IMG/VR virus record: IMGVR_UViG_3300009285_011187
Reading direction: 5' to 3' (one strand)
Source of the DNA: an uncultured virus (IMG/VR IMGVR_UViG_3300009285_011187)
Lineage: Duplodnaviria > Heunggongvirae > Uroviricota > Caudoviricetes
DNA length: 20,000 nt
Positions within the stretch are counted from its first letter, which is position 1. Every line of letters begins with the position of its first letter. A program made the translations under genes and the position numbers. Below the pieces are notes generated by a model. That model had not been told where the DNA came from. It saw only the letters and a list, made by a program, of their open reading frames with translations, and did no database searches. Shown in pieces: positions 3,260 through 18,773 of this stretch.

Positions 3260-3290
3260 GGTGAATATCCTCCTTAGTTAATCAGCGCCA

Positions 3291-3890
3291 CTAAGCTGTA
3301 GTAACAGTCGTGGTGGTTGTGGTGCTGGTTGTCGTGGTCATGCTGGTCGTGGTCGTTGTCATTGTCGTCGACGTAGTAGAAATTGTTGAAGCCGTAGTTG
3401 ACGACGAAGACGTTGTAGAACTACTGGTCGAGGTGGTTGACGACGAAGACGTTGTAGAACTACTGGTCGAGGTGGTTGACGACGAAGACGTTGTCGTAGA
3501 AGTGCTAGTTGAGGTTGTTGTCGTTGTTGGTACCGTACTAACAGTGTTGCCACTCACCCTTATTTCAACCAACTGATCTGCCAACGATTGAGCACGCATA
3601 ACAACGCCATTGATATACTCGCCTCTGCCGGCTATTACAGCCTTACCAAGTCCGTTGGTCGTGACTTTGTCGCCTACGCCCAGGGCTTCGCCGGCAGTAA
3701 TCAGTCCGGTGCCGTCAACAATGATGGCGAATGTCTGCCCATCAATGGCGCTGTCCATAGCAATGCCTTTGGCCAGTTGGCCCTTGGCATTGCACTGGGC
3801 ATCGCTGTAATTAATAAACCGGCGACCAGTGACTGCTCCACTTGCTACGCCAGTTGTCTTCCGGCGTGGCTTTTCCGTATGCAATCCCAT
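3291..3890 (-). CDS. DUF2190-like capsid cement/decoration protein with a 78-aa Thr/Ser tail
   Basis: ASGAVT.RRF, GIA.D.A.DG, AGEAL..GD.VTT...GKAV motifs; located between scaffold and capsid genes; AGGAGG RBS. Confidence 0.8.
   Translation of the reverse strand: MGLHTEKPRRKTTGVASGAVTGRRFINYSDAQCNAKGQLAKGIAMDSAIDGQTFAIIVDGTGLITAGEALGVGDKVTTNGLGKAVIAGRGEYINGVVMRAQSLADQLVEIRVSGNTVSTVPTTTTTSTSTSTTTSSSSTTSTSSSTTSSSSTTSTSSSTTSSSSTTASTISTTSTTMTTTTTSMTTTTSTTTTTTVTTA
3397..3494. repeat. 39-bp tandem repeat (2.5 copies) encoding part of the Ser/Thr tail
   Basis: gttgacgacgaagacgttgt starts at 3397, 3436 and 3475. Confidence 0.9.
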
Positions 3891-3905
3891 AATTCAAAGC
3901 CTCCT

Positions 3906-4334
3906 TTAGGCTGTCGTTGTGGTCGTTGTGGTCGTTGTCGTGGTTGTGGTCGTTGTCGATGTGGACGTCGTCGGAACGGTGCTGACCATATTGCCACCGA
4001 CTCTGATTTCCACAAGCTGGTCTGGAATGAGTTGCTGGCGCATAACTACGCCGTTAACGTAATCCCCCTGGCCGGCGACAACCGCCTTGCCCAGGCCGTT
4101 TGTGGTAACTTGCACACCGGCGTTCAACGCCTCGCCTGCAGCTACCAGACCGGTTCCGTCAATGATAATGCCAAAACTTTGACCATCTATGGCATTATCG
4201 ATAGCGATGCCCTTGGCTAACTGCCCTTTGGCGTTGCACACAGCATCGCTGTAATTGACAAACCGGCGCGCCGTCACGGCGCCGCTGGCCGTCCCGGTTG
4301 TAATAGTTCCGGGTTTCTCAGTATGTAAAGACAT
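3906..4334 (-). CDS. DUF2190-like capsid cement/decoration protein paralog with a 21-aa Thr tail
   Basis: 92/121 residues identical to the domain of 3291-3890 (manual alignment); GGAGG RBS. Confidence 0.8.
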   Translation of the reverse strand: MSLHTEKPGTITTGTASGAVTARRFVNYSDAVCNAKGQLAKGIAIDNAIDGQSFGIIIDGTGLVAAGEALNAGVQVTTNGLGKAVVAGQGDYVNGVVMRQQLIPDQLVEIRVGGNMVSTVPTTSTSTTTTTTTTTTTTTTTA

Positions 4335-4359
4335 GATTTATCCTCCCTGTGCGTGATGG

Positions 4360-4950
4360 TTACTGCATGAAGTGTTGCGAGGCAACTTCATAGGATACTT
4401 TCTTTTCCTCCATGTAAGCCCTGATCTGAGCGTCGAGATCCAACGAAGCTGGGTCAACCTGATCCATCACTTCGCTGTAAGTGGCCGGGAGCGCATTGCC
4501 TTTGGAGTCCTTTTGAGCGGCGCTATCCTTACTAGCAAATCTCGGTTGCCGCTGGTTGATGACAGGCCTGGCCTCGATGCCTGCCTTAAACTTTGCAGAT
4601 GGAGGAAGTTGCTTATCCGCAAAAGTAACGCCCTTTTCCAGGGTCAACAGTTCGGAATACTGATCTACCAATCCCTGCTTTTCTGCAGCCAGGATTTTGC
4701 CTTCCTTGACCATCGATTCAGCAAAGCTGGCAAATTCGGCAACACGATCAGCGTCCTTCGCGACCTTTAGGGTCGTGACGTCTGCCGCCAGTGCCGTAGC
4801 CGTATCGGAAAATTTCTTTACCGAGCTATCCAGCTTTGTAACGGTTTCAGCAAGAGCGGTAATTCCTTTCGCAGCTTCGCCAAACGCGGCCACCTGGGTC
4901 TCGATTTTGGCAAGACGATCGTCTAACGCTTTCTTTTCTTCTGGTGTCAT
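4360..4950 (-). CDS. Internal in-frame scaffolding protein (Mu gpZ-like)
   Basis: AGGAGG-accac-ATG at 4950 inside the protease ORF, giving the helical MTPEEKKALDDRL... product of 196 aa. Confidence 0.7.
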   Translation of the reverse strand: MTPEEKKALDDRLAKIETQVAAFGEAAKGITALAETVTKLDSSVKKFSDTATALAADVTTLKVAKDADRVAEFASFAESMVKEGKILAAEKQGLVDQYSELLTLEKGVTFADKQLPPSAKFKAGIEARPVINQRQPRFASKDSAAQKDSKGNALPATYSEVMDQVDPASLDLDAQIRAYMEEKKVSYEVASQHFMQ

Positions 4951-5901
4951 GTGGTCCTCCTGTGAGTCTGAATATTTTGATTGCGGTTCATCAGGGATGT
5001 ATGTCTCGGTAGCCGACTTCATCAAAGAGTTAATGGAGTTTTTGTCCAGGATCTTATTCGCCGTATCCAGCCCGAACTTCTCGATAAAGAAGTCACGGAT
5101 AGAGGAAAATAGCCTACCGATTGCCGGCACACGGTATTCATCCGTTGCCCAACCAGCAAATGCCGTTTCCAGTTCCTCAAATTCTTCTGTCGCCGAAAAA
5201 GCTACCGGCACAAGGCCCTTGACCGCAGGTGGCGTCGCGCCGAGCAAGCCTACATGACGCAGAAGTTTATTGGGATACAACGCGATGCTGACAAATTTGT
5301 AAGCTCCGCTCTTGGTGGAGTCCTTGGCATACTGACTCACCTGATCACAAAAAGCGTACAGCTTGTTGCCGATCACCTTTAACGTCTGAATCCAACCATG
5401 GGCCGGATCGTCGGTTGCTGGATGACCAAAAACAAGTGGCGCCTTATGTTCTGTTTGAGCATTGTAGAGATCAGCGATCTCGGCAATGTCTTCATGGCTG
5501 TATGTTTTAACCGTACCGTTACTGGCGGTGTGGGTTCCGGTCTTAAAAACTTCTATCCACATGGCGTCGCTATCGTCATGTTCAGTTTTGCAGGCTGGCA
5601 TGTCCGGATATTTTTTGCAGACAGCTTTCATAACTGCGGCATGATCCTTGGTACCAGCTGCGCGTGCCAGTGCATTGGCGGCGTGGGCCTTGTCATGTAT
5701 AGGGAACCGACGCTCCTTTGAAAAAACAAAAGCGCTGTCCGGTAGGGCATTGCGTGTAGCGGATGTAAGTTGCTTGTACTCGAGGCCGGCATATTCCGCA
5801 TAAGCAATTGACGCTGCGATATCGGCATCCATGCCGCGCGTTGCGAGCTCCTCAATGCGCTGCTTCATGTAATCTGACAACATACAGTTAACCGGTTGCA
5901 T
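4360..5901 (-). CDS. Prohead protease/scaffold (Mu gpI-like) with an N-terminal DUF6582-like domain
   Basis: WIEVFKTGTH, APLVFGHP, PAHGWI, YKFVS, LRHVGLLGATPPAVKGL protease motifs; coiled-coil C-terminus. Confidence 0.88.
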   Translation of the reverse strand: MQPVNCMLSDYMKQRIEELATRGMDADIAASIAYAEYAGLEYKQLTSATRNALPDSAFVFSKERRFPIHDKAHAANALARAAGTKDHAAVMKAVCKKYPDMPACKTEHDDSDAMWIEVFKTGTHTASNGTVKTYSHEDIAEIADLYNAQTEHKAPLVFGHPATDDPAHGWIQTLKVIGNKLYAFCDQVSQYAKDSTKSGAYKFVSIALYPNKLLRHVGLLGATPPAVKGLVPVAFSATEEFEELETAFAGWATDEYRVPAIGRLFSSIRDFFIEKFGLDTANKILDKNSINSLMKSATETYIPDEPQSKYSDSQEDHMTPEEKKALDDRLAKIETQVAAFGEAAKGITALAETVTKLDSSVKKFSDTATALAADVTTLKVAKDADRVAEFASFAESMVKEGKILAAEKQGLVDQYSELLTLEKGVTFADKQLPPSAKFKAGIEARPVINQRQPRFASKDSAAQKDSKGNALPATYSEVMDQVDPASLDLDAQIRAYMEEKKVSYEVASQHFMQ

Positions 5902-7225
5902 TTGCCTGCCTCCTCTGATTCTTGATGTCTAATATCTTTCTGGCGCCTTTTCTTTCTTTTTTGGTCCCAGTTACCTGCAACTTGGAAGGATTGACAATCT
6001 CGTCTTCTAGATCGTCTTCCTGGAGCCGGTATGCGCGTACAAAGTAAGATTTTTTGAAAATTACACCAGCCCGGGACAGCGCTTCATCGCGCGTCGCCCG
6101 CTTATCATCGACCTCATTTTCGTGAAAAGCTATAACCCGCGGCCGCGGAGCCTGGGCGTAGCCATTGCGATAAAAAATCATGTTAATGATGTCATCCCAG
6201 ATCGAGGCTACCATTCTTTTATCCCGGTCCTGGATATCGTCACGGACTGTCAGAGCTCCGGCTGTTGCTGCATAGCTGCCCTTTTGCCCGGCGTCTGTGG
6301 AAAGCGTATGACCCAAAATGCGTTTAGATATCTGGGAATCCATAAAATCACACATCTGTTTAAAGCCGTCGTTATTTTGACGCGCACTGCGCTGTTCCAG
6401 CAATTCAACTTCTTTGTTCTCGGAAAGCGCGATCACGGCATCCTGGACCAGGCCTTTTAAATCGGTTGCAAAGGCAGTCAAATCCTCACTTTTGGCACTA
6501 GGGCCTTTAATCGTCCCTTTGACCCATGGCGTGCCAAAGCGCTCCAAACAGTTAAGCCAGAATTCTAGTCCCGCACGCTTAAAAACGATGGGCCAAAAAC
6601 ATTGAGTGGCAACGCCGCGACCGTAGGGATTGTCAAAGGTAGGCTTGAAGCGTGGACAAATCAAAGTCCATTCATCTGGCGGCGGCTCGCCGTTAATCAT
6701 GTCTTTCTTGGAAATAAATCGCAGTTCAGGGACTCCATCGCTGGGAATAAAAAAATGGAACCAGTCTGGCGGCAACGGCGTAATCTCCAACGGCATCCAC
6801 AACCCACTAAAGTAATCCCAGGTTAATTCTGCCGGTTGATAGCCCCAATAAATGACATCCAGCAAGTTCGATGTGAGCTCGTCCCGTGACAGATCCTCTA
6901 CCCTCATTTTCCGTTCAATGATGGAGAAAAACCATGTTTTGATGGCTTTATACAAAAATTCAGGACATTCGCCGCGTTCGATACGCCAATCGTAAGCCAT
7001 GGTAGCCGACTCCCGTGATTCAAGTGTGGCGATCAGGTGTGCGTCAGACATCAATTCCCGGTAAATGGCCATCGTCTGCCCGCGCTTTTCCAGTACGCGA
7101 TCCGGGTTCGGCAGTCGCTGGTTAAGAACCAGCCAGGCTTGCGAAGTGGTCTGGTAGTTGTACTTTGTTTTCCCGTAAGGAATGACAACCGACTGTGGAT
7201 CGCGTGGTTTACGCCGTCTCGACAT
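5888..7225 (-). CDS. Portal protein (Mu gp29/DUF935-like)
   Basis: LPNPD.VL, DAHL...LESR, NPYGRG, FW...LERFGTPW, QISKRILGHTLST..G..GSYA motifs. Confidence 0.93.
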   Translation of the reverse strand: MSRRRKPRDPQSVVIPYGKTKYNYQTTSQAWLVLNQRLPNPDRVLEKRGQTMAIYRELMSDAHLIATLESRESATMAYDWRIERGECPEFLYKAIKTWFFSIIERKMRVEDLSRDELTSNLLDVIYWGYQPAELTWDYFSGLWMPLEITPLPPDWFHFFIPSDGVPELRFISKKDMINGEPPPDEWTLICPRFKPTFDNPYGRGVATQCFWPIVFKRAGLEFWLNCLERFGTPWVKGTIKGPSAKSEDLTAFATDLKGLVQDAVIALSENKEVELLEQRSARQNNDGFKQMCDFMDSQISKRILGHTLSTDAGQKGSYAATAGALTVRDDIQDRDKRMVASIWDDIINMIFYRNGYAQAPRPRVIAFHENEVDDKRATRDEALSRAGVIFKKSYFVRAYRLQEDDLEDEIVNPSKLQVTGTKKERKGARKILDIKNQRRQANATG

Positions 7226-7652
7226 TGACAGCTCCTATCAGTAAATTGCCCTCAGCCTGCCGGCGCCGGATCAGGCCAGGCAGCTTTCTGCCGCCGCCAA
7301 AGACCCATTTCTGCAGCTCCAGATACGCGCCATGGATATCGCCTGCATTAACTCTGCGTCTCAATGTGGATCCCGCAAGTCTAGTAGCGCCAAGGTTATA
7401 AGTAAAATCAGCAATTGCGGCTAGTTGTGGGCCGGCAAGTCCTGGACACAGTTTCATGGTGGCTCGCATAGCGATACCGGCATCCCGGCCAAGCCGAACT
7501 TCGGCCTGTCCGACCGAGAACATCATGCCTGGTTTTATGTCTGGGCCAGTGGCGCCATACATGGCAGTCCACACGCCGGCCGGACATGGGTAGGCCCGCA
7601 GTCGCAGTCCCTCGAACAGACGAATTAAGGATTTAAGTATCTTAATAGCCAA
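7209..7652 (-). CDS. Endolysin, GH24 lysozyme
   Basis: FEGLRLRAYPCPAGVWT (E-C-T catalytic variant), FTYNLG, STLRRRVNAG, LPGLIRRR..E. Confidence 0.93.
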   Translation of the reverse strand: MAIKILKSLIRLFEGLRLRAYPCPAGVWTAMYGATGPDIKPGMMFSVGQAEVRLGRDAGIAMRATMKLCPGLAGPQLAAIADFTYNLGATRLAGSTLRRRVNAGDIHGAYLELQKWVFGGGRKLPGLIRRRQAEGNLLIGAVNVETA

Positions 7653-8184
7653 GGCGCTTCCTCAGTGAACGGTCAACAAACCAGAACCCCAGAATCATAA
7701 AGAGAATGGATGAATCTTCCCTGGTCCATAACACAACCAGAAAAGCTTCAAATGTTTGCGCTGTGATGGCGGCTGAAACAATGACGCATAGTTTGTAAAT
7801 AGTGAACAACACCATCCACCAGTAAGTAATGATTGGGCGTATGGTCGCACTAAGCGCATCGGCCCATGGCAATCCGATGACCGCGGGTGGCTTGATCGCT
7901 TCAAGGTATGCCTGCATCTCCAGGCGCCGTTCGTCGGCGTCTACCTGTGAATCAATAGTTTGGCGCGTCTCGGCGCTCTCGGCATGGAGTTTATCTATTG
8001 CCAACTTGGACCGCAGTTCGTCGATCTTGTATTGCAGCTCGGTCATTCTATATTCGTGGTCGTGGTCTTTCTTCGCCGTCCAAATTTTCATGAACTCTGG
8101 GATCAGGCGCATAAAAGCGCCGGCGCCGCCAGCGAGAATCGGACCGAGACCGCCAGTAAAGATAGCAAGTAGTGCTTCAATCAT
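7642..8184 (-). CDS. Putative holin (GTA-type 3-TM holin-like)
   Basis: N-terminal hydrophobic segment, coiled coil, W.D.LSATIRP.ITY and GFWF.DRSL motifs; adjacent to lysozyme. Confidence 0.7.
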   Translation of the reverse strand: MIEALLAIFTGGLGPILAGGAGAFMRLIPEFMKIWTAKKDHDHEYRMTELQYKIDELRSKLAIDKLHAESAETRQTIDSQVDADERRLEMQAYLEAIKPPAVIGLPWADALSATIRPIITYWWMVLFTIYKLCVIVSAAITAQTFEAFLVVLWTREDSSILFMILGFWFVDRSLRKRLGY

Positions 8185-8315
8185 ACGCGCTCCTTAAATA
8201 AACGACGTTGCTTGATCTCATCTTTTTCGAGTCGAAATCGGCATTGACCCTCGGTGCAGTGATCGCATGGAAGATTGCGGCGCCTGCACCAAGGAAACAC
8301 AAAAATAATATGCAT
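8181..8315 (-). CDS. Small Cys-rich hypothetical protein (44 aa)
   Basis: GAGG RBS; C-x6-C-x2-C-x4-C; stop overlaps the holin ATG (ATGA). Confidence 0.45.
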   Translation of the reverse strand: MHIIFVFPWCRRRNLPCDHCTEGQCRFRLEKDEIKQRRLFKERV

Positions 8316-8325
8316 CGACAGGACC

Positions 8326-8652
8326 TCATTTAAGGGCTCCCGGATTAGTAAGTATAAATTTCCATATTCCGCCGATAATCGACAAAAGGGCCGCAATTGT
8401 CAGGGCGGTGATTACAGCTTCCCTGCGATTTTTTTTTGGTTTGTTTTGCTCTTCGATGGTGATTTCACGGGTTACATGTTCATCATACTTGGCAAACTTG
8501 CCGGCGCAGCGCGTTTGATGATCCATTACTTCCTGGCGGATACATTCAATGCCAGTTTCAACCTTTAAATGGACGTTTTGAAATCCTGTACTCATTTCTT
8601 GTCTTATCAAATTAACAGATGCTAATATTTGAGCGGCCAGGGCTTCGTCCAT
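8326..8652 (-). CDS. Membrane protein with coiled coil and C-terminal TM helix (lysis-cassette accessory)
   Basis: 108 aa; GGAGG RBS; TM segment AVITALTIAALLSIIGGIWKF. Confidence 0.7.
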   Translation of the reverse strand: MDEALAAQILASVNLIRQEMSTGFQNVHLKVETGIECIRQEVMDHQTRCAGKFAKYDEHVTREITIEEQNKPKKNRREAVITALTIAALLSIIGGIWKFILTNPGALK

Positions 8653-8803
8653 ATTAAAGAGCCTCCAAAGGCGGTAGATATCACCTACAATTTATCTACT
8701 ATGATTCCGTGCTTTCGGATGTTCGTTAAAAAGTCAATAGTAGAAATGCATTTATTTTTAAAAAAAGGTAAAAAATTTTTTAGTGGATTATATACCAGCA
8801 GGT

Positions 8804-10438
8804 TTAACGTGCAGGTAAAGAAGTGAATCCTTCAAGCAGTTTCATTGACTTGCGACCACCAGCGGTGACTATCCCGCCACTCCTGGCTGTGACGAGCGTC
8901 ATCAAAAAAGAGATCGCCTGACTGGTGCTATCAGCATCGTCCTTAAATTCAGTGTTCGGAAAATTAGCCATCATGTCGACATAGTCCTGAACCCAGGGTA
9001 CGTTGCCTGGCAACCAGCAGCGGTGCGACTCCACTGTCGGAGATATATATAGCGCCCTGGTTTCCTTGCTTTCATTGCCCGGATTGACACGGATTACCGG
9101 AATAGACGTCTCCTGCTCCAGGCACGAAGCCAGGGCCTGCCCGGAATCCTTGTCCTCGATCAGCACGACATCCGGACGCCAAAGATTATACTGGTCTCCT
9201 GCGGCTTTGCGCAACTGTGGAAACTCCATCCGGTCCTGGAAGCGATCCAGTAGCGCAAAGCCCTGGTCGAACAAGCCCCAGGTCTGGCAGTTGCTCTGAG
9301 CCGAAGTGTCGCCTCTCTTAGATGCCGTGTCCCAGGATTGGACAATATAGTAGCACCGTGGCACTGTGGAATAATACTGCCAATACTTGCGCAGGAATAA
9401 GTTACCTTCCTCAGAGGACGGCCGCTGTTGAAATAGCGCGTTCCACACCTTGCGCGGCGTGTTAGCCCTGATCCGCTCCAGCGCTTTCTCGTCGCGGCGT
9501 TGCGGGCAAAGCGCCTCTCCAATGGAGCGGCCAATAAAGTCGTCAGCTTCAGCGATTGCCGGCAGCCTGATATATATCCAGCCATCATCTTTTTTTTCAC
9601 GCATTACGTAGCCAATCGCGTCATCCTCGTGCCAGCGCGTCATCAGTAAAATTGCCGTGGCGCCCGGTTCCATCCTGGTCAGGAATGTCGAATCGAGCCA
9701 ATCATGCACGCCTTTCCTTATAGTGTAAGACATAACCTCGGCCCAGTTTTTGTGCAGGTCGTCGCCGATTAACAAGTGCGCACCTTCGCCGGTCAGCGGC
9801 CCGCCAACGCCGGCAGTAATCATACCACCCCCTTCAGTGGTAAGCCAGCGCGCCGAAGCTGTGGCGTCCTCAGCAATCACGACGCCGAGTTCAGGATGTT
9901 CCTGGAAAATATTGCGGTCAGTCCGGCCCCACTTCGCCGCGAACTTGGCTTCATATGTGGCCAGAATCACGTTTTTCTGCGGCCAGTTAGTCAAAAACCA
10001 GACCGGCAGCCACTGGGAAATGAACATACTTTTGCCATGTCGCGGCGGCACTGACACAAGTATGCGTCCGTCTCCCTTAGCAATCTCGTTGGTGATGATG
10101 TGAGACAATATGACAAGATAGTCATAAGGTATCCAGGCGCCACGGCTTGTGTGAGCGGCCAGTGTGTGCGGCAATAACTTCCATGGGGTAGGCGGGACCC
10201 AATCCAGAAACTGTCTATAGCCCATCGATGTCGTAGCGGTCTGGTTCTCCGTCTTCAATCTCCTCGCGCTCACTCTCCCCGGAATGCCGGCCCGTCTCGA
10301 AGTCCTTGTCACTATTCTGTGGTTGGAGCTGTATATCTCCCCCCCGGTCGACTCCAGGCAGGTCAATACATCCAGGCCCGCCTGCGCCTCGGCCCTCTGC
10401 CAGTCCTCCCATTCCCGCAACTTCTCTTCCAGGCTCAC
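8804..10438 (-). CDS. terL: Terminase large subunit (start at GTG 10438 or ATG 10225)
   Basis: Walker A VPPRHGKS, GGPLTGEGAHLLIGDD Walker B, MTRWHEDD, QSWDTA, IEDKDSG, DDADS nuclease motifs. Confidence 0.95.
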   Translation of the reverse strand: MSLEEKLREWEDWQRAEAQAGLDVLTCLESTGGEIYSSNHRIVTRTSRRAGIPGRVSARRLKTENQTATTSMGYRQFLDWVPPTPWKLLPHTLAAHTSRGAWIPYDYLVILSHIITNEIAKGDGRILVSVPPRHGKSMFISQWLPVWFLTNWPQKNVILATYEAKFAAKWGRTDRNIFQEHPELGVVIAEDATASARWLTTEGGGMITAGVGGPLTGEGAHLLIGDDLHKNWAEVMSYTIRKGVHDWLDSTFLTRMEPGATAILLMTRWHEDDAIGYVMREKKDDGWIYIRLPAIAEADDFIGRSIGEALCPQRRDEKALERIRANTPRKVWNALFQQRPSSEEGNLFLRKYWQYYSTVPRCYYIVQSWDTASKRGDTSAQSNCQTWGLFDQGFALLDRFQDRMEFPQLRKAAGDQYNLWRPDVVLIEDKDSGQALASCLEQETSIPVIRVNPGNESKETRALYISPTVESHRCWLPGNVPWVQDYVDMMANFPNTEFKDDADSTSQAISFLMTLVTARSGGIVTAGGRKSMKLLEGFTSLPAR

Positions 10439-11168
10439 TTACCGCCTCCACATTTTTTAACGTCTGATCAAGCCGGCGCTGAAAATCCTCACCCTTGTCC
10501 TTGCCGCGCAGTGAAATATTGTAACCAAAAGCCATTGCCGCCAGAAATTCCAATGCCCGTCTGCCGGCAGGGTTCTGGAGGATATTTAAGTATTGCTGGT
10601 TAGACATAGTGCGCGGCGTCTTAACGCTTTGTTGCTTTTCCAGGTCGTTCAGTATCTCAAGTAATCGATCAATTGCCGGTTGTTTTGGGTGCAATTTAAT
10701 TTTAACAGTATGCCCGCCGCGTTGGTTCGCAACGTCGGTTATCTCCATGACGCCGGCACGCTGCAGGTCAGTCAGCTCATCAGAGTCCTTAAGGAAAGTA
10801 ACGCCGTTACTATTCCACTTAATATAATCAGACATCCTGGCCGTGGCCATAGCCTTCAACTCCAGGATCAGGCGATCCACAGTGATATCCAGGCGGGCTG
10901 CGATATGCTTCTTCAGTATATCAATATAGGCCGCAACCTTCTCGTGCTCAAGAACTCTATCAACATTCTTAGACCACATATTTTTCTGGTTAGTGCCGGC
11001 CAGCCAGTTTTCAGGATGCCCGTACCCAGCTTCGTGGAAAGCTAAAAACTTATCATAATGGATAATGTACCGCTCGGCAAACTTGCGTTGTTTTTCAGTC
11101 AGATCAAGTAGTGAAATTTGCTCGCGGCGAACAATGTCAATAGTATTCATTGCGGGCGACGTAGTCAT
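10215..11168 (-). CDS. terS: Terminase small subunit (Terminase_2-like, long C-terminal extension)
   Basis: LTEKQRKFAERY...AGY, V.AYI..L, IT.D....EL..MA, KIKLHPK..A...L motifs; directly upstream of terL. Confidence 0.88.
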   Translation of the reverse strand: MTTSPAMNTIDIVRREQISLLDLTEKQRKFAERYIIHYDKFLAFHEAGYGHPENWLAGTNQKNMWSKNVDRVLEHEKVAAYIDILKKHIAARLDITVDRLILELKAMATARMSDYIKWNSNGVTFLKDSDELTDLQRAGVMEITDVANQRGGHTVKIKLHPKQPAIDRLLEILNDLEKQQSVKTPRTMSNQQYLNILQNPAGRRALEFLAAMAFGYNISLRGKDKGEDFQRRLDQTLKNVEAVSEPGREVAGMGGLAEGRGAGGPGCIDLPGVDRGGDIQLQPQNSDKDFETGRHSGESEREEIEDGEPDRYDIDGL

Positions 11169-11197
11169 GGGTAAAAAATATAGTAAAAAAAAACAAA

Positions 11198-11241
11198 GTC
11201 AAGAAAAAATACTTGACAAGGATAAAAGATGGGGATACAAG
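11198..11241. promoter_or_regulatory. Back-to-back -35 elements / palindromic operator GTCAAG-N8-CTTGAC; plus-strand sigma70-like promoter
   Basis: TTGACA 11213-11218, 17 nt, TACAAG; TTGACT on the minus strand facing terS. Confidence 0.5.
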
Positions 11242-11345
11242 ACAATCGACTTCCTTGTACAAAGGTGCAGTTCGGTTCGGGCCCCGGCTGCACCTCTTTA
11301 AAGATTCAAAACGCATTCCGCCCCAACCCCCCAAAATTGTTACTC

Positions 11346-11861
11346 TAATCACGATAATCACAATAAAGGGAAAATAATCACCATCTCGTGATTATTGTGA
11401 TTAATTCAATAAATTCAACTACTTACAAACTTCTATCAACAGGTTTTTTGATTTTTAACTACCTGAATTTATTCACTAATCACGGTTACGCGTTTTTCTG
11501 GAAATTTTTTTGTGTTTTTTCTGTAGTTGTATTTAGAAGCGTTACCAGGCGGCTTACTATATAGGAAATATTATGATGATAGTAAGTATAAAATAATTTA
11601 AAATATGGTGATTATATGATTAATATAATAATTATAGGTAATTATATAAAATATAGTGTGTAAGTATTGTGATTATTGTGATTAATATAATTAGAATAAA
11701 TACTTACACCGCGCGAAGAATCCACACACACTACTACTTCTATATAAAAATATCTCTATATATACCATCAACTATTAACTAAAATTCATTGCAAAATATC
11801 TACCCTGTGGAAAACATTCAATTAATCACCATCAGAATACCAAAAACGCATATCATGATTA
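11346..11861. repeat. AT-rich region with 10 exact TAATCAC/GTGATTA iteron-like motifs
   Basis: Copies at 11346, 11355, 11375, 11388r, 11397r, 11477, 11608r, 11669r, 11678r, 11823. Confidence 0.85.
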
Positions 11862-12092
11862 ATGGTAGGTACAAATATATGTTTTACCATATATTTCGTT
11901 ATATACTCCAATATATTCAGTACCTTAAAAAGCGCTTTTTGGCAAAATTTACTGTGCGAGGAGAGTGGGGTGCCCTCCACCTACCCCAGAAACCGCGGAT
12001 ATTTACCCCCCACCAGGTTGCTGATCCTTAGCACCGCCTTAGCCGGCCTCATTGCTTGTCGGGTATGGATGCAGCTGCAGCCACATTGTCCT

Positions 12093-12223
12093 GGGCTCGC
12101 TCCGTCACGATTCTTGACTCGCTATCGCTCGTCAACAATCGCGCCGTCGCTGGTTGGTAGCTTAGGGCTCGCTCCGTCACGATTCTTGACTCGCTATCGC
12201 TCGTCAACAATCGCGCCGTCGCT
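12093..12223. repeat. 59-bp exact direct repeat (period 72) containing a hairpin
   Basis: gggctcgctccgtcacgattcttgactcgctatcgctcgtcaacaatcgcgccgtcgct at 12093 and 12165. Confidence 0.92.
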
Positions 12224-12719
12224 ACCTCGTACCAAGCGCCCAGACCTCGCGCTGTAGTCAACACCCCACCTGCGCTAGCCCTTGACCGAGGGGCAAACCA
12301 CCGGGGACCGGTTATGGCGCTGCTCGTCGGCGCTCGCAGCTACAAAGGATGCCGGGGTGCTCCGCTCTCACTGCGCCCCGGCGCTCGATGTTCCGCTCCA
12401 CTGCACAAGGAGGCAGGGATCGCGCCAACAAGGGCATGCTGTCACGATCCCTGCACTTGGTGTAGTCCGTCTATGCTACTGGCCCAAGAAGACGGGCCAG
12501 AAGCATAGACGAGCTATAAGGAGTTCGCACTGGCCCGATGAAGAATGGGCCAGAGCTCACGCGCCGCGCCGCAGTAATGAGTTTAAAGGAGCGCGGCGCC
12601 CCAGTATTTTAGTCTATAAGGAGGCAAGGGCCGCGCCAGCTGCGCTGTCACGTCCCTTGCACATGGTTGTGCCGGGCGCTCCACTCCGTTCCCGCGCCCG
12701 TACCACGTACCCCGTACCC

Positions 12720-12939
12720 CGTAGCCATAACGTAGCCACAGGTGCTAAGTACCCCGTAGCCATAACGTAGCCACAGGTGCTAAGTACCCAGGGGCGCTGC
12801 GGCGCAATTCCCAAATTGGGAGCACCGTCCGTGATTTTCACGGCGCTGTCCGTGATTTTCACGGATTAAGGGGTAGGCATATTACCAAATGGTGACATAA
12901 TTAGCGTAGCCATAACGTAGCCACAGGTGCTAAGTACCC
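12720..12939. repeat. Three exact 35-bp direct repeats
   Basis: cgtagccataacgtagccacaggtgctaagtaccc at 12720, 12755 and 12905. Confidence 0.92.
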
Positions 12940-13049
12940 GCAGCTGTTAGGCTTCTACTGATGTTTCACGTGAAACATTACGCGGGAATAGGGACGAAGA
13001 TGCGAGGTTAGGGCCCTGATTTTCACGATCCAGGCCGTGATTTTAACGG
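12829..13049. promoter_or_regulatory. Repeated palindrome CCGTGA-TTT-TCACGG (putative operator)
   Basis: Exact at 12829-12843 and 12850-12864; degenerate at about 13015-13028 and 13035-13049. Confidence 0.6.
12962..12977. promoter_or_regulatory. parS: parS centromere-like site
   Basis: TGTTTCACGTGAAACA, a perfect match to the chromosomal ParB/Spo0J consensus TGTTNCACGTGAAACA. Confidence 0.85.
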
Positions 13050-13639
13050 TTTCTCCGCAACCATGCTCAGATATTCATCGTTTTCCACTTAATTTTCAAG
13101 GCCAGTAAAAACGCGGTATCCAATAAAGGCGTGGTGAGGGATCGTAATATCATTTTCATAAAGCAGGGCGTTGCGGCGCAAGCGCCGCCGCTCTGGCGGG
13201 CTAAAGCCCCGAGCCAGCAAGCTGTCTCGGCCCAAAGGGCGCCGGCCGCTAACGCAGCAAAGGAAGGGGCGGCAAAAAAGACGCCGCCCGGTTTTATAAA
13301 GCGTTATGGCGCGAAAAGATGCGCCATCGCAGGAATGGCGCTAGGAAAGGCGCGCCAGCAGGGGTCCGTGGGTACATCCCCCTGCACTCCCTTGCGGGCG
13401 GATGATAAAAATACCGCCCGCCGCGTATTTGCAAATCAGTACTACGCTCTCTCTCTCTTGTCGTCTTATTGTGAGCGCGCAACATTGACCATCACAAGCA
13501 TCCCCCGCCCCATAAGACGCGCCGCCCGAAAAGATGCGGCGCATGGGGCGGGAGCCGTACCGGATGCGCGCGACATCGGCCGGGCTGTCAAGGTAGAATC
13601 GCCTCGATTTTTTACGGACCAGAGTATTTTGGTTATTTA

Positions 13640-13672
13640 CGGCCCACCGAAAAGAATGTGGGCCGCTTTTTT
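13640..13672 (+). terminator. Intrinsic terminator-like hairpin
   Basis: CGGCCCAC-cgaaaagaat-GTGGGCCG followed by CTTTTTT. Confidence 0.55.
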
Positions 13673-13903
13673 AAAGGAGAAAATCTTCCTGGCCCTAAAA
13701 ATCGGGCGATCTCTACCTTGACAGCCCCCAGTCTTTCGCGATCACTTTATCGCCGCATCAAGATTATAGCCCCATGATCGATCATCGCAGCTTTATGATT
13801 GTTGCTTTCGACGCGAAAGACGCAAGCTCTGTCATGGGAAAAGGCGACAAGAGCGAGAGAGACGATCCCAGCTCTTGATTAAAATTCGATAGGGAGGTGT
13901 ATT

Positions 13904-14188
13904 ATGATGAAAGTTGTAAATAGACATAGTGAACGCTTTCAGATTTACATTGGCAGGGGGACAATGTGGGGAAATCCCTACATAATCGGTAGGGATGGCT
14001 CTCGCGAGGTTGTTCTTGATAAATATAAGAAATACTTGTGGCAACGTATGAAGGACCAGGGATTCCGAAAAGCCCTGATGAATCTTGATGGTAAAATCCT
14101 GGGTTGTTCTTGTAAACCATTGCCATGTCATGGTGATATTCTTGTTAACGCAATAGCCTGGTTAAAGGGAAGGAGAACAGGACAATGA
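13904..14188 (+). CDS. DUF4326 family protein
   Basis: YIGRG..WGNP...G.DG.R, L.GK.LGC.CKP.PCHGD.L signature; GGAGG RBS. Confidence 0.9.
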   Translation: MMKVVNRHSERFQIYIGRGTMWGNPYIIGRDGSREVVLDKYKKYLWQRMKDQGFRKALMNLDGKILGCSCKPLPCHGDILVNAIAWLKGRRTGQ

Positions 14189-14532
14189 ATACAATTATCG
14201 CTGGATCAAGAGGATTTGAAAACTACAGCTTCATGGTAAGTAGTCTTGATAAGTTATTCTCACGCATTAAGCCAGGCTTGATAATTTCGGGAGGCGCACG
14301 CGGAGCCGATTTACTAGGCGAGCGTTATGGCAGGGAGAATGGGATTCCGGTTAAGACAATCAGGCCGAATTGGTCAAAGGGCAAAGCCGCTGGATATGCA
14401 CGGAATGTCGAAATGGCAAAGATCGCGGATTCATGCGTCGTCTTCTGGGATGGCAAATCTCCGGGCACGGCGCACATGATAAACATAGCTAAAAAGCAAG
14501 GCCTGTCGTTACGGATCGTCAAAATAAAATAA
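14185..14532 (+). CDS. SLOG superfamily protein (YspA/DUF2493-like)
   Basis: IIAGSR.F, ISGGARGAD.LGE, W...GKAAG..RN.EMA, FWDGKSPGT.HMI. Confidence 0.9.
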   Translation: MNTIIAGSRGFENYSFMVSSLDKLFSRIKPGLIISGGARGADLLGERYGRENGIPVKTIRPNWSKGKAAGYARNVEMAKIADSCVVFWDGKSPGTAHMINIAKKQGLSLRIVKIK

Positions 14533-14565
14533 TCTGTTTCATCATAATTCTATGGAGGTGCGACC

Positions 14566-16068
14566 ATGAACACAAGTAGATTACACTTTACCCGGTCCCA
14601 GGAACTCCGAATTATCACCGGAGCCAGGTATGCCGACTTCGTCCTCGAAACGAGGACCAACGGCAACGATTTCAATAATAGCGTCAGCGTGGCCATGGCA
14701 CTCGCCATGATCCAGGCGCTCGATGAGCGCGACACCGACATGACATGCCTCATCCAGTCATACGCAACCTTAAACTCCAAAAGCCAGCTCCAGATCCGCA
14801 AAATCAAGCTGACCGGCACACGGACCGAGGCCCGCAATGGCCGCACCGTTTACAACCTTGACTATCTGTTGCCGGCCATGCCCCTTGAACAGATCTCCGC
14901 ACCAATTGGTAGTGTGGAACACACCTTCACCAACGACGGTGAGGAGACAACCTACTATATCCCCGTCCGCGAGGACGAGGCGCCGGTCATGGGCACGCCA
15001 GGATATAGCGACCAACCCGATCTCCGCAGCGAGCATGCCCGAATCATGGTCCCACAAAATAGCATGGAAGGCATTTTCGGCATCGCCGAGCACCTGGGTG
15101 AGGGCCAGGACATCAAGCAAATCCGGTGCGAGATCCCCGGCAAACTTTACGGCCTTGATCTTGGTCAACGCCTAATCTCCAAGCAAGGCGGACTCAACCA
15201 GCTCGATCGCATCATCTACGACGAGGCCGGCATGACGGCCCAAGGCAAGGCTTGCCTGCCGCACGAAAATCGGCAGCCAACAAAGTGGTGGAAGCATGCC
15301 GGAGGGATCCGCCACAAGTATAATTGCACCATCGAACAGGCAACGCAGCTCGCCGACGCCTGGAAAACGCTGGACGCCACGGCCACCATGGTCGCCACGT
15401 TCGACAAGTGGGTATCTAGGGGCATTGAGGCTGCTTGCGCTTACTTCTCGGCCCTGGGCGCTGAGTTGAAAGCAGTCGCACCCGAGGCCGAGCAGCTGGA
15501 TCTGATTACCTACGAAGAAGCCGACAGCACGGAAGACGCGCTCGACGCAGATCACCCGGTAGATATTCAGACGATCCAGGCCGACGCCTGGCACTTGCTT
15601 GACGATCCCCGGAACGACATGCCAGCCTGGGAAACACGCCAGCCGTACCGATTCCAGACTGTCCTTGGCATGATTCGACAGGCTGACGCTGGCCAGCTCA
15701 CCGCCTGGGCCAAAAGCCAGTACAGCAGCAAGCCCGAATGGCAAGGCGTCCAGGCGCAAGTTTTGTGGTCAGCCTACAAAGCCAGGAAAGCGGGCTTTGT
15801 TACAGGTAAGGGTAAGCGCATCATCGAACGCTGTCGCCTGACCGACAACAAAGCCAAAGCCAGGTTCTGGCTCTACAATAAAGGCGGCACTGTCCTCAAT
15901 TCGGTCGAATTGACCGAGGCCTGGAAAGCTATTGGAAAAGAAAGTCGTCAAAAGAAAGGCTGTCAAAAGATAATAAATACATCGCAATGTAATACGTGCG
16001 ATGTAAGGTTGTGCAGCCACCGTGAGGCAGCCTATAAAGCCGTACCGATACCAGAATATCCAGAGTAA
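14566..16068 (+). CDS. Large hypothetical protein (500 aa) with a C-terminal Cys/His cluster
   Basis: Long ORF, GGAGG RBS; no family recognised. Confidence 0.85.
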   Translation: MNTSRLHFTRSQELRIITGARYADFVLETRTNGNDFNNSVSVAMALAMIQALDERDTDMTCLIQSYATLNSKSQLQIRKIKLTGTRTEARNGRTVYNLDYLLPAMPLEQISAPIGSVEHTFTNDGEETTYYIPVREDEAPVMGTPGYSDQPDLRSEHARIMVPQNSMEGIFGIAEHLGEGQDIKQIRCEIPGKLYGLDLGQRLISKQGGLNQLDRIIYDEAGMTAQGKACLPHENRQPTKWWKHAGGIRHKYNCTIEQATQLADAWKTLDATATMVATFDKWVSRGIEAACAYFSALGAELKAVAPEAEQLDLITYEEADSTEDALDADHPVDIQTIQADAWHLLDDPRNDMPAWETRQPYRFQTVLGMIRQADAGQLTAWAKSQYSSKPEWQGVQAQVLWSAYKARKAGFVTGKGKRIIERCRLTDNKAKARFWLYNKGGTVLNSVELTEAWKAIGKESRQKKGCQKIINTSQCNTCDVRLCSHREAAYKAVPIPEYPE

Positions 16069-16243
16069 CACCTACCACCCCATGCGCCCCGGATTCAACA
16101 TCCGGAGCGCATGAATTATTCACCCACTCTGCCGTCAGGCTCCGGAAGTAGCACCGCTTCCGGGGCCGCGGGACCTGGGGCCGCGGGACTTGGGGATGGG
16201 GAAAATAAAATAGAAACCCAAACTGCAAAAAATGGAGGAAACC

Positions 16244-16516
16244 ATGGACCACATCAGACTGGAAATTCTAGAAGATTTTACACCGATAGCATTTTACGAA
16301 TACGCGCATAGCGTACAAGAAAAAATAATATCGATAGGAGAGGAAGAAACGTACACAGAAACAAAAAACATGCTGGTAGCAGCATTCAACAAAAAAGGGA
16401 TTAAGGCATATAGCGACAATAAGACGGCATTTGAAATCCAGGTGCACGGCAAAAGATATTTCATCGGATTTTATAACTGGCACATGCATATCGGCACTGC
16501 CGTTATGGAAAGATAG
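16244..16516 (+). CDS. Hypothetical protein
   Basis: GGAGG RBS before ATG 16244; operon-like packing. Confidence 0.7.
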   Translation: MDHIRLEILEDFTPIAFYEYAHSVQEKIISIGEEETYTETKNMLVAAFNKKGIKAYSDNKTAFEIQVHGKRYFIGFYNWHMHIGTAVMER

Positions 16517-16526
16517 GAGGAAATTA

Positions 16527-16775
16527 ATGAACCTGTTAATCTTCATAATCATCATAATCGGCGCCGTCAGTCTAGGTTGGTACGCATGGAGGAAAATATG
16601 TTCAAAGTCATTCTCGGCTGGCAGGGTGAACTGCATACGCTCCATTACACGAAAGCATCGACGGCTTGCCAGGCTGAAGCACAGGCCATATACGCCCTGG
16701 GCAAAAAGACAAGAAGATCCACTGCGTCACTTACGGCATACTTCAGATCCCAACCGCGGAGAAAGGAGATTATAA
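16527..16775 (+). CDS. Hypothetical protein with an N-terminal TM helix
   Basis: AGGAGG RBS; MNLLIFIIIIIGAVSLGWYAWRK; overlaps the next ORF. Confidence 0.45.
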   Translation: MNLLIFIIIIIGAVSLGWYAWRKICSKSFSAGRVNCIRSITRKHRRLARLKHRPYTPWAKRQEDPLRHLRHTSDPNRGERRL

Positions 16776-16783
16776 AGTGTTAA
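16598..16783 (+). CDS. Hypothetical protein
   Basis: GGAGG RBS before ATG 16598; 61 aa. Confidence 0.55.
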   Translation: MFKVILGWQGELHTLHYTKASTACQAEAQAIYALGKKTRRSTASLTAYFRSQPRRKEIIKC

Positions 16784-16977
16784 AGGCCGCATACGTGATC
16801 GGACTCCCAGAAACAGGGGGCTGCTGGATCTGCACAGAAAGATGTTATTTTAACCACAAACAAGCATACGCAGCCCTGGAAATCATCAGAAAGCACGACC
16901 CGGACTGTAAAGACAAAGTATTTCATTTATACGGGGAGGAAAATGACAATGGAAACGATGGCTATTATCTACTCTGA
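16777..16977 (+). CDS. Hypothetical protein
   Basis: AGGAG RBS, GTG start overlapping the previous gene end. Confidence 0.55.
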   Translation: MLKAAYVIGLPETGGCWICTERCYFNHKQAYAALEIIRKHDPDCKDKVFHLYGEENDNGNDGYYLL

Positions 16978-17140
16978 CGCCTGCAGTGCCAGAGGCAAAG
17001 CATGCACGCCCGGATTTTTCGGCTGTAATAACGATCCGGCGAACTGCCCATACTTCACCAAGAAAGAAGCTCTACCTGTGGAACCCGAGAGCTTCACGGG
17101 CCGGCAAATGAAAGATTGGGCTGAACAATTATGGTATTGA
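16943..17140 (+). CDS. Small Cys-rich hypothetical protein
   Basis: GGAGG RBS; four Cys (C-x7-C-x6-C-x6-C). Confidence 0.6.
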   Translation: MTMETMAIIYSDACSARGKACTPGFFGCNNDPANCPYFTKKEALPVEPESFTGRQMKDWAEQLWY

Positions 17141-17183
17141 TTCTGTTATTAATTGAACTCACTAACAACAAGGAGGATTTAAC

Positions 17184-17576
17184 ATGAATAAGGCAATGGT
17201 TATTGGAAGGCTAGGCGCGGACCCGGACGTTCGCACAATGCCCAGCGGCGACACAGTTGCAACACTTAGTATTGCGACCAACGAGCGATTCAAGGATGCC
17301 GAGGGCAATAAGCAGGAAAGGACCGAGTGGCACCGCGTTGTGACATTCGGGGCGATGGCAAAGGTGGCCGCAGATTATCTAGCCAAAGGCAGACTCATCA
17401 TGACGGAGGGCCGACTCCGGACCCGAAAATGGAACGATAAGGACGGCGTCACCAGGTACACCACTGAAATCGTGGCTCAACGCCTGGAAATGCTGGACAG
17501 CGCAATCAAGGCTGAATCGCCCAAAGCCCCGGCGCCGGACACGGAAACCTATAATAGCGAGGAGGTCCCGTTTTAA
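17184..17576 (+). CDS. ssb: Single-stranded DNA-binding protein
   Basis: MNKA..IGRLG.DP..R, ERTEWHRVV, YL.KG....EGRLRTRKW, acidic EEVPF C-terminus. Confidence 0.97.
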   Translation: MNKAMVIGRLGADPDVRTMPSGDTVATLSIATNERFKDAEGNKQERTEWHRVVTFGAMAKVAADYLAKGRLIMTEGRLRTRKWNDKDGVTRYTTEIVAQRLEMLDSAIKAESPKAPAPDTETYNSEEVPF

Positions 17577-17701
17577 TGAAACGCTACGTCCTGATCACCA
17601 TAATCGCTCTGGTTGTATATTACGGCATCAGCATTATGGCCGACATCAGGCAGTGTACAGCGGAACACGCCTACGACATCGCGGAGGGGCAGCAAAGATA
17701 A
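17576..17701 (+). CDS. Small membrane peptide (41 aa)
   Basis: TAATG coupling to the ssb stop; MKRYVLITIIALVVYYGISIMA...; below the ORF-track cutoff. Confidence 0.6.
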   Translation: MKRYVLITIIALVVYYGISIMADIRQCTAEHAYDIAEGQQR

Positions 17702-17808
17702 AATTCTTTCTGTCATTTTTTGTATTTATCTCACTTTTCAATCGGCCAGGCAGGGGAACGTAAAGATGCGCCCTGCCTGGCCCCAACAACAACAAGGAGG
17801 TTACAACA

Positions 17809-18153
17809 ATGAAAAAAGTTACAGCAACAAACATCTTTGCAACATTAATGATCGTCATCATGATCGCGTTGTCAGTGGTCCAGGTTCTCGCAGCAGATCA
17901 AATTCTCGAACGCAAAATCTCACAGATCGTCTTCCGGAACGACAAAAACGGCAACCCCTATGCTCGAATCCTCGTACCCGAACCAAAAACATTGAACGGC
18001 GTTACGTACACTAAAGACACATCGATCATGGTTTTCGGCGACCTCGTCAAGGACGCCAAAGTCTACAAAAAGGGCGATACCGTGAAGGCCGTAGTCTCGG
18101 CATCGGAATTCCGGGGTGGCATCAGCTACCAGGCGTTGAAATTTTTGAAATAA
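17809..18153 (+). CDS. Exported protein, signal peptide plus OB-fold-like domain
   Basis: MKK-hydrophobic-VLA signal peptide; DKNGNPYA and VFGD..K..KKGD.V beta-rich pattern; AAGGAGG RBS. Confidence 0.75.
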   Translation: MKKVTATNIFATLMIVIMIALSVVQVLAADQILERKISQIVFRNDKNGNPYARILVPEPKTLNGVTYTKDTSIMVFGDLVKDAKVYKKGDTVKAVVSASEFRGGISYQALKFLK

Positions 18154-18175
18154 TCGGCAAACCAGCAGAAGGGCG

Positions 18176-18305
18176 GGCCAGGGGCCGACAATCAGCACAG
18201 CGGCCCCTGGCCATTGTTTTTAGTTTCGGATCACAACCCGACATCGTAGCCAGGGGATAACGGTCAAAAGCCCATAGCGCCAAGGCCGCCCCTGGCTGTT
18301 TTTTT
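18176..18305 (+). terminator. Tandem terminator-like hairpins
   Basis: GGCCAGGGGCCG/CGGCCCCTGGCC (18176-18212) and AGCCAGGGG/CCCCTGGCT (18248-18297), each followed by T-runs. Confidence 0.55.
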
Positions 18306-18416
18306 CGCAATAGCCGGCCGGGCAGTCGGTAAGGGGATGCGCATCTTAAAAACGCATTTATAAAATTTCCAAGAAGGTATAAAAATAAGAACCGAACTGC
18401 GAAAAACGAGGCCAAT

Positions 18417-18773
18417 ATGTCAAAACCTACCGAAGAGCAAGAAAGATTCAACAAAGAAGAACTTAAAACAAAGATCAAAGAAATTTTCCAAACGAGCCCA
18501 GATCAATCAAAGGCAATAGTCGAAATCTACAAACTAGCGTTCCCGGACTGGGACAAAATCAAAAAGATTGAAGGCTGGCCGACCGCAGGTAAAGAATTGT
18601 CCGATTTTATCTGGGAACAATTTATTAAGTTTGATCTAAGGCACCACCCGGACCTTTTTGCTGGTGGATCATGGTTGAACTACGGCTTTTCAGCTCACGA
18701 CAATGAGCGCCTTGACCTCTGGGCCATCGACACATCGATGTGCCAGGTAGAATATGAGGGTCAGTATGGCTAA
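18417..18773 (+). CDS. Hypothetical protein
   Basis: 118 aa; GAGG RBS; globular-looking composition. Confidence 0.75.
   Translation: MSKPTEEQERFNKEELKTKIKEIFQTSPDQSKAIVEIYKLAFPDWDKIKKIEGWPTAGKELSDFIWEQFIKFDLRHHPDLFAGGSWLNYGFSAHDNERLDLWAIDTSMCQVEYEGQYG

Follow-up and report, generated by a model that had tools for sequence, protein, structure and literature searches.

Few RNA switches are understood as well as hairpins whose loops are recognized by a specific reader, such as those of the N-boxB pair, of coat-protein operators, and of CsrA sponges, and these hairpins are in wide use as tools. In phage lambda, boxB is a short GC stem capped by a 5-nt purine loop (a GNRA-like pentaloop), which lies a few nucleotides downstream of boxA and is read by the N protein. 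The translational operator of T4 gp43 has an 8-nt loop, and phage 5′ stabilizers carry Shine-Dalgarno-like elements. The distal face of Hfq binds A-R-N repeats, and CrcZ is a decoy of this kind. Among DNA elements, REP elements have conserved stems, are dispersed genome wide, and go with a RAYT transposase; CS-6 of ssoA is a conserved loop that sits on variable stems and acts in single-stranded DNA (ssDNA), with one sso per replicon. Here, we describe a family of GC-rich hairpins in a 20,000-nt stretch of DNA (the window) from an uncultivated tailed phage (IMG/VR record IMGVR_UViG_3300009285_011187), in which an earlier sequence-only reading had noticed different stems with a shared AAGA loop motif. 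We find that this hairpin family is real, statistically strong, and strand specific. Six members (hp1 to hp6) lie in a 2.7-kb non-coding control region (11169-13903) between the terminase genes on the minus strand and the early genes on the plus strand, and a seventh (hp7) lies between plus-strand genes inside the early operon.

An exhaustive scan for perfect inverted repeats found hairpins at the positions that the sequence-only reading had given. The members described here are all written as the plus strand, and pairing probabilities come from predicted folding of plus-strand RNA. The first, hp1 (inner hairpin, 12479-12500; whole structure, 12463-12516), is CTGGCCC/aagaagac/GGGCCAG with the loop AAGAAGAC and sits atop a 10-bp outer helix; its minimum free energy (MFE) is −41.5 kcal/mol (z = −8.8), and its mean stem pairing probability is 1.0. 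Next to it, hp2 (12530-12553; CTGGCCC/gatgaagaat/GGGCCAG, loop GATGAAGAAT) has a stem identical to that of hp1, a mean stem pairing probability of 0.98, and an orphan AAGGAG 6 nt upstream. Farther downstream, hp3 (13267-13289; GGGCGGC/aaaaaagac/GCCGCCC, loop AAAAAAGAC) is followed by GGTTTTAT up to 13297, a tail that is read directly from the sequence and makes hp3 terminator-like on the plus strand. The stem of hp4 (13306-13327; ATGGCGC/gaaaagat/GCGCCAT, loop GAAAAGAT) competes with an overlapping alternative hairpin at 13321-13341 (pairing, 0.54 versus 0.41). Two relatives have decayed: hp4b (13336-13357) repeats the hp4 stem in tandem (TGGCGC/GCGCCA) with a different loop, TAGGAAAGGC, that has lost the motif, and a degenerate member at 13394-13421 (GCGGGCGG/ATGATAAAAATA/CCGCCCGC) has an A-rich, hp2-like loop without the G of AAGA. 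The composite hp5 (inner hairpin, 13519-13542; whole structure, 13504-13552; MFE, −35.1; z = −4.7) consists of an outer helix of 10 bp, AAGAC as a 5′ bulge, and an inner helix of 7 bp, GCGCCGC/ccgaaaagat/GCGGCGC, with the loop CCGAAAAGAT. The last member in the control region, hp6 (13640-13665; CGGCCCAC/cgaaaagaat/GTGGGCCG, loop CGAAAAGAAT), is followed by CTTTTTT up to 13672, so that on the plus strand it is shaped like an intrinsic terminator, and a long inverted repeat, I1 (13582-13727), has hp6 as its tip. The outlier hp7 (17744-17782) was confirmed as a 12-bp helix (GGCCAGGCAGGG/CCCTGCCTGGCC; MFE, −30.2; z = −4.9) with a 15-nt loop, gaacgtaaagatgcg (GAACGTAAAGATGCG), within which further pairing can leave AAGA as a tetraloop; no U tail follows, and 12 nt separate the end of hp7 from the AAGGAGG of the open reading frame (ORF) at 17809-18153.

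The loops of hp1 to hp7 are thus 8, 10, 9, 8, 10, 10, and 15 nt long on stems of 7 to 12 bp, and the loop centers of hp1 to hp6 are spaced by 52, 736, 38, 214, and 122 nt. Mean stem pairing probabilities in context were 0.86 to 1.0 except for hp4 (0.54), and the loops were 0.73 to 1.0 unpaired. Contigs from four DNA runs had no variant in any hairpin. Less can be said for 13813-13823, which the sequence-only reading had also listed as a hairpin: this copy of the motif (AAGACGC, as GCG-AAAGA-CGC) has a weak GCG/CGC stem of 3 bp and is overlapped by a competing 6-bp hairpin at 13805-13819.

The enrichment of these structures was strong. Statistics were computed for 12000-13900 against 1,000 dinucleotide shuffles. 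In this interval, there are 10 GC-rich hairpins with stems of at least 7 bp (shuffle mean, 0.77), 6 of which have loops of 8 to 10 nt (shuffle mean, 0.17), and all six of these loops carry AAGA on the plus strand (shuffle mean, 0.005). None of the 1,000 shuffles reached the observed counts, so that the loop motif passed a check that had been proposed beforehand. In hp1 to hp6, the plus-strand loop carries AAGA at its 3′ end, and none of the six hairpins in 12000-13900 carries it on the minus strand; with hp7 included, every copy has the plus-strand orientation. A motif-anchored scan (loop ending in AAGA(A)Y; stem of at least 5 bp) returned six plus-strand matches and no minus-strand match in the window. 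The same scan of 842 kb of other viral loci returned nine matches with stems of at least 7 bp on both strands summed, a background that is inflated because 57 of the control loci had been picked for containing the motif. The motif occurs in two sub-forms, namely, CGAAAAGA(A)TG in hp2, hp4, hp5, and hp6 (and nearly in hp7) and AAGACG in hp1, hp3, and the bulge of hp5.

What varies among the copies is the helix. The one motif is carried by stems with the 5′ arms CTGGCCC, GGGCGGC, ATGGCGC, GCGCCGC, CGGCCCAC, and GGCCAGGCAGGG. The earlier claim of different stems stood to the extent of four to five distinct ones and not seven, as hp1 and hp2 share theirs. Two hairpins, hp4 and hp5, also share a 15-nt string, GC[GC]CGAAAAGATGCG, that is paired in different registers. 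Because the stems vary and these registers differ, it is the fold and the loop sequence that are kept, not the half-sites that a dimer would bind in duplex DNA; varied stems with one loop motif therefore argue that what is recognized is a single strand in folded form, not duplex DNA.

The setting of hp1 to hp6 appears to be non-coding. The longest ORFs in the gap have codon log-likelihood scores of −0.02 and 0.06, compared with 0.15 to 0.32 for 18 of the 21 genes in the reference set (0.002, 0.016, and 0.100 for the remaining three), and they have no Pfam or PHROG match. No small ORF in the gap has a Shine-Dalgarno sequence at a usable distance from its start. When the ORF at 13131-13721 was compared with 5.8 billion proteins, the sole match was the same ORF at 99% identity, and this ORF has the AAGA motifs in three different frames. 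Since there are no family matches, low codon scores, no start spaced from a ribosome-binding site (RBS), and only a self-match, we took the gap as non-coding; a protein-coding origin of the motif was rejected on coding statistics, the lack of homologues, and the presence of the motif in three frames.

We then compared the family with described systems. Like lambdoid nut sites, these hairpins have a GC stem and a purine-rich loop of the kind that is read by sequence, would lie on early transcripts upstream of terminators, and have the recurring loop strings GAAAA and GAAGA. They differ in having loops of 8 to 10 nt (15 nt in hp7) instead of 5 nt, stems of 7 to 12 bp, and at least seven copies instead of two nut sites. 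A search for boxA-type patterns with up to 1 to 3 mismatches gave no more than a chance frequency (21 matches versus 17 expected and 10 versus 14), and none adjoins a hairpin; the nearest boxA-like strings lie in 59-nt repeats, at 12127 and 12199. No gene for an N-like antiterminator was matched by Pfam or PHROG among the ORFs scanned, which span 20 kb out of at least 72 kb of contig. The suggestion that these are boxB-like sites thus fails on loop size, boxA, and an N-like gene, and we rejected membership in the boxB/nut family.

Sponge RNAs (CsrB/RsmZ and CrcZ) resemble the family in that many copies of a short single-stranded motif are displayed in non-coding hairpin loops. The phage motif, however, is AAGA(A)Y and not GGA (CsrB/RsmZ) or AANAANAA (CrcZ/Hfq), and one copy lies inside an operon. 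A CsrB/RsmZ-type identity, which the sequence-only reading had raised, was rejected since the loops present AAGA in place of GGA and since Rfam (10500-18500, E ≤ 1) returned no such model. That search gave only three matches (E = 0.04 to 0.32), all to eukaryotic microRNA models and at 22 to 28 bits against thresholds of 100 to 297, i.e., at chance level. Consistent with the earlier statement that no described family matches, the literature searched, available in part, yielded no described family of AAGA-loop hairpins. Translational operators and stabilizers share with the phage family sequence-specific hairpins with loops of 8 to 10 nt near Shine-Dalgarno sequences (hp7) and an orphan AAGGAG beside hp1, hp2, and hp6; they differ in that no gene follows six of the seven phage copies.

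Among DNA-level elements, REP/BIME sequences are likewise GC-rich intergenic hairpins. We rejected a REP/RAYT origin because the phage stems differ between copies, no transposase is present in the window, and the hp4 core is scattered in GTDB. The conserved loop on variable stems is a feature shared with ssoA, which differs in its single sso per replicon versus multiple phage copies. Mimics of CRISPR repeats (4-nt loops), N4-type hairpin promoters (3-nt loops), and, by scan, tRNA or tmRNA were also rejected. Lastly, TIGR (tandem interspaced guide RNA) arrays, known from phages and CPR bacteria, are described in the accessible part of their report as alternating edge and loop repeats with spacers of ~9 nt in 36-nt units or as two-spacer stem-loops with box C/D motifs (PMC12045711). 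As far as that text goes, the likeness consists of metagenomic phages, conserved short A-rich loop segments between variable segments, and stem-loop variants (PMC12045711). The phage hairpins differ from that description in having spacings of 38 to 736 nt, no alternation of edge and loop repeats, no 9-nt spacers, no 36-nt period, perfectly self-complementary arms, and loops too short for spacers. Since no Nop-domain Tas protein was matched by Pfam in the 25 window ORFs scanned, a TIGR array as so described was rejected on irregular spacing, short loops, and the lack of a Nop-domain protein in the window.

Several features favor the plus strand as the sense strand at this locus. The seven hairpin copies of the motif all point the same way, and hp7 belongs to a plus-strand operon. 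All 15 copies of AAGGAG in the window are on the local sense strand. Five plus-strand copies of AAGGAG(G) (12407, 12518, 12586, 12618, and 13674) are orphans with no start codon at a usable distance; two lie within a 10-mer, CTATAAGGAG, and two within TTAAAGGAG, and such elements stand beside hp1, hp2, and hp6. The plus strand has more A than T from ~12500 onward, and the U-rich tails after hp3 and hp6 exist on this strand only.

We propose, at somewhat short of an even chance, that the hairpins act as RNA on the early strand and that one factor, reading their loop, governs termination, stability, or translation. RNA as the active form, a protein as the reader of the loop, and a regulatory outcome are what we infer from the sequence. 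The hairpins would be a strand-specific family of cis-acting RNA stem-loops, located in the untranslated early leader or in non-coding RNA (ncRNA) transcripts of the control region. On a stable GC helix whose own sequence is free to vary, each copy would show the same purine motif (consensus CGAAAAGA(A)UG, with AAGACG as a second form) at tip and 3′ shoulder, and the loop would be the recognition element for a single putative RNA-binding factor of the phage or its host. Having the form of terminators just upstream of the first early gene, hp3 and hp6 might control read-through, while hp7, 12 nt before an RBS in the early operon, might control translation or stability. The overall logic would be multi-site and nut/boxB-like or operator-like, outside those families. 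A conformational switch is also possible, given the stems that hp1 has in common with hp2 and hp4 with hp4b, which can re-pair mutually. A bolder version, which we regard as doubtful, is a hairpin-loop code of the phage's own, in which a dedicated factor, possibly one of the orphan early proteins, reads loops of the form AAAGA(A)Y-G, whose GC stems are interchangeable, at no fewer than seven sites and couples origin-proximal non-coding transcripts, terminator read-through, and early-gene translation; such a system of multi-site RNA (or ssDNA) recognition would be new and would lack relatives by sequence in Rfam and in today's phage, plasmid, genome, and metagenome collections. If so, a new pair of loop and protein from an uncultivated phage lineage would be an orthogonal module, and the locus would show how early genes are controlled in a phage with no recognizable regulators.

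A number of observations weigh against this proposal. The case for RNA is built on sequence, and the base pairs are neutral: hp1 to hp7 have only Watson-Crick pairs in their stems (55 of 55, no G-U), the mismatches in the long imperfect inverted repeats (3 G·T versus 6 A·C) give no plus-strand G-U bias, and both strands fold equally well (z = −8.7 and −8.2), so the structures are just as compatible with ssDNA. A U tract directly follows only two of the seven copies (CTTTTTT after hp6 and GGTTTTAT after hp3; none after hp1, hp2, hp4, hp5, or hp7), and a consensus terminator scan flagged no plus-strand hairpin, as its loop limit is 8 nt. The claim of a single-strand recognition code, supported by the varied stems with one loop motif, is qualified by the motif itself, which runs from the loop into the 3′ arm. 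There are four plus-strand copies of AAGATGCG, one of which (12997-13004) is outside any hairpin. AAGAYGC occurs six times in 830 nt (12997-13823), always on the plus strand, and two to three of these copies (12997, the bulge at 13514, and 13817) are outside hairpin loops. This, together with the extension into the 3′ arm, means that the motif is possibly a linear one. No window protein matches an RNA-binding or antitermination-type family in Pfam or PHROG, and no relative that keeps the control region was found in GenBank phages, plasmids, IMG/VR, JGI metagenomes, or GTDB. Finally, the iteron-like repeats described below mean that the region may be an origin, where ssDNA hairpins would be plausible.

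The first alternative is that the hairpins are ordinary terminators, insulators, or mRNA-stabilizing structures, whose shared loop was inherited by duplication of one ancestral hairpin and has no role in recognition. The U-rich tails after hp3 and hp6 fit this explanation, as do the evident duplicates with identical stems (hp1/hp2 and hp4/hp4b), the many other duplications in the region (D1 to D17), and the fact that other terminators in the window also combine a GC stem with a long loop (e.g., 18176-18212, followed by a T run). If only the fold were constrained, however, loops should diverge faster than stems, whereas here the stems were replaced and AAGA(A)Y-G was kept in six of six copies; hp4b, which lost the motif, is an example of a duplicate whose loop is unconstrained. 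Five of the seven copies also have no U tail, and we regard plain terminators as unlikely.

Alternatively, the hairpins may be ssDNA signals beside a replication origin that fold in the displaced or lagging plus strand and serve in loading or priming (ssi/sso-like) or as ssDNA promoters. The exclusive Watson-Crick pairing with no strand bias in wobbles would suit such signals. Six direct plus-strand copies of CGTAGCCA (12720-12923), arranged as three pairs 11 nt apart within a 35-nt repeat (D2), resemble replication iterons and lie between hp1/hp2 and hp3 to hp6. The window also contains an AT-rich block and a gene for a single-stranded DNA-binding protein (SSB), and an unrelated IMG/VR contig (L073) has the same 18-nt core among TAACGCACC iterons in a non-coding gap. 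A bidirectional origin, however, predicts hairpins on opposite strands on its two sides, whereas a single strand carries all of them here. The ssi/sso signals that are known come one or two to a replicon, compared with seven copies in this phage, and hp7 is 4 kb away in an operon directly before an RBS. Pfam and PHROG scans recognized no replication initiator, primase, or HUH nuclease in the window. We consider this explanation distinctly unlikely.

A third possibility is a multivalent decoy ncRNA whose A-rich loops titrate a host RNA-binding protein, for example, at the distal face of Hfq, as CrcZ does. Each loop has two consecutive A-R-N triplets (e.g., AAG-AAG and AAA-AGA) and is predicted to be unpaired, and a 1.2-kb stretch of non-coding sequence with terminators accommodates six to eight of the loops. 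A small Phage_lysozyme with a single domain serves as the endolysin, which we take to fit a Gram-negative host, where the A-R-N binding mode of Hfq is known. An A-R-N reader, though, would not need the G of AAGA and the following pyrimidine-G that are kept in every copy, and Rfam returned no match. That one long ncRNA holds all copies, as the sequence-only reading had supposed, is unlikely because the iteron/operator/promoter block and terminator-like hairpins lie between the copies, with hp1 and hp2 upstream of the block and the others downstream, and hp7 is within an mRNA. A sponge thus seems quite improbable. Very improbable is a protein that reads asymmetric AAGAYGC in duplex DNA, with the inverted repeats incidental or otherwise used: the clustered, co-oriented copies partly outside loops and the density of other DNA-binding-type repeats would suit it, but hp1, hp2, and hp6 lack the GC of this motif (they have AAGACGG or AAGAATG instead), six copies at the junction of loop and 3′ arm in perfect 7- to 8-bp GC repeats (0.17 expected) are left unexplained, and differing arms around an asymmetric fixed part make a reader of duplex DNA unlikely.

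The phage itself belongs to a novel lineage, and its large terminase is at most 39% identical to that of any GenBank phage. In Pfam and PHROG scans, positions 1-11168 hold minus-strand genes for the major tail protein, a head-tail adaptor, the major head protein, scaffold, protease, a Mu-type portal, the lysozyme-type endolysin, and the large and small terminases. From 13904 on, the plus strand carries early-type genes, of which DUF4326 and a SLOG-family protein come first, followed by a 500-amino-acid (aa) orphan, SSB, and small orphans. We saw no repressor gene in the window. The 500-aa protein (14566-16068) has no Pfam, PHROG, or usable Atlas relative and could be a candidate replication or regulatory factor for the control region. 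Its Atlas model is of low confidence (pLDDT, 0.35).

The same sequence is present in DNA runs from six studies labelled groundwater or soil metagenome, and the phage also occurs in two JGI metagenome contigs (L027 and L028), one of them 72 kb long. These two contigs, at 100% identity, were the only matches to the small terminase in JGI metagenomes. Searches for relatives otherwise returned either nothing or loci without such hairpins. By blastn, 11200-13900 matched nothing in GenBank phages or plasmids, the small terminase and the 500-aa protein had no relatives in IMG/VR, and the large terminase had no match in GTDB genomes. In IMG/VR, the large terminase matched 26 loci at 31 to 36% identity, each with zero to three GC hairpins and none with the motif, and DUF4326 matched one locus (L086) at 49% identity that is without such hairpins. 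The family is therefore private so far to one phage population, which limits its value for now. The core pattern of hp4 and hp5 had 57 matches in IMG/VR, only one of which was a hairpin. This is the unrelated 39-kb contig L073, in which the 18-nt core of hp4 lies in a non-coding gap (~1460-1640), nested between inverted copies of an iteron, GGTGCGTTA, and followed by three direct TAACGCACCCTAC repeats. In GTDB genomes, the 18-nt core had 106 matches scattered over many phyla with no family in excess; the stem extended by at least 4 bp in four of them versus ~0.4 expected, a slight excess, and two of these four share flanks.

The control region as a whole is a 2.7-kb array of iteron-like repeats, operator-like sites, orphan ribosome-binding sites, and hairpins. 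Its left third is AT rich, to ~12000, and it is GC rich beyond. Two units at 12398-12466 and 12609-12672 are paralogous, each with AAGGAGG and then a hairpin, and they differ at matching positions on both arms (CAGGGA/TCCCTG versus CAAGGG/CCCTTG); because the changes match on both arms, the fold was kept between them, and folding is thus maintained elsewhere in the region. Nested long inverted repeats enclose hp5 and hp6. The outer one (13447-13467/13841-13861; 21 nt, 90% complementarity) closes a stretch of ~415 nt (13447-13861) and ends ~30 nt before the RBS of the first early gene, and the inner one, I1 (13582-13612/13697-13727; 31 nt, 81% complementarity), has a 16-nt perfect core with TTGACA on both strands.

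Between hp2 and hp3, four 15-bp inverted repeats of the form CCGTGA-TTT-TCACGG (12829-12865 and 13014-13050), all with TTT on the plus strand, flank a predicted plus-strand extended −10 promoter, TAGGCA-16-TGaCATAAT (12874-12901), in what looks like a repressor/operator arrangement. The number of iteron-like copies in this block differs among samples, as one 35-nt unit is absent in L028. L027 and runs X7 and X9 have a 185-nt skip (12719-12905) that also deletes two of the operator-like sites and the predicted promoter. A perfect 18-bp palindrome, ATGTTTCACGTGAAACAT, lies at 12961-12978, and one X7 contig matches the phage through 12978 and then continues as unrelated sequence that starts a gene; this junction may be a mosaic boundary with another phage. 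Upstream of the hairpins, a perfect 59-nt direct repeat is present twice (12093 and 12165, spanning 12093-12223, with starts 72 nt apart), each copy with TTGACT and with a string that departs from an rrn-type boxA at two positions. Just upstream of the small terminase gene lies an AT-rich block (11340-11835; ~34% GC) in which GTGATTA/TAATCAC occurs in both orientations, at least 10 times; these copies are candidate packaging or initiator binding sites. At the left edge, the minus strand has a weak hairpin with a T run behind it (11198-11217), located just upstream of where the small terminase gene starts; this hairpin overlaps a promoter-like TTGACT-16-TATTTT and may be an attenuator of the late operon.

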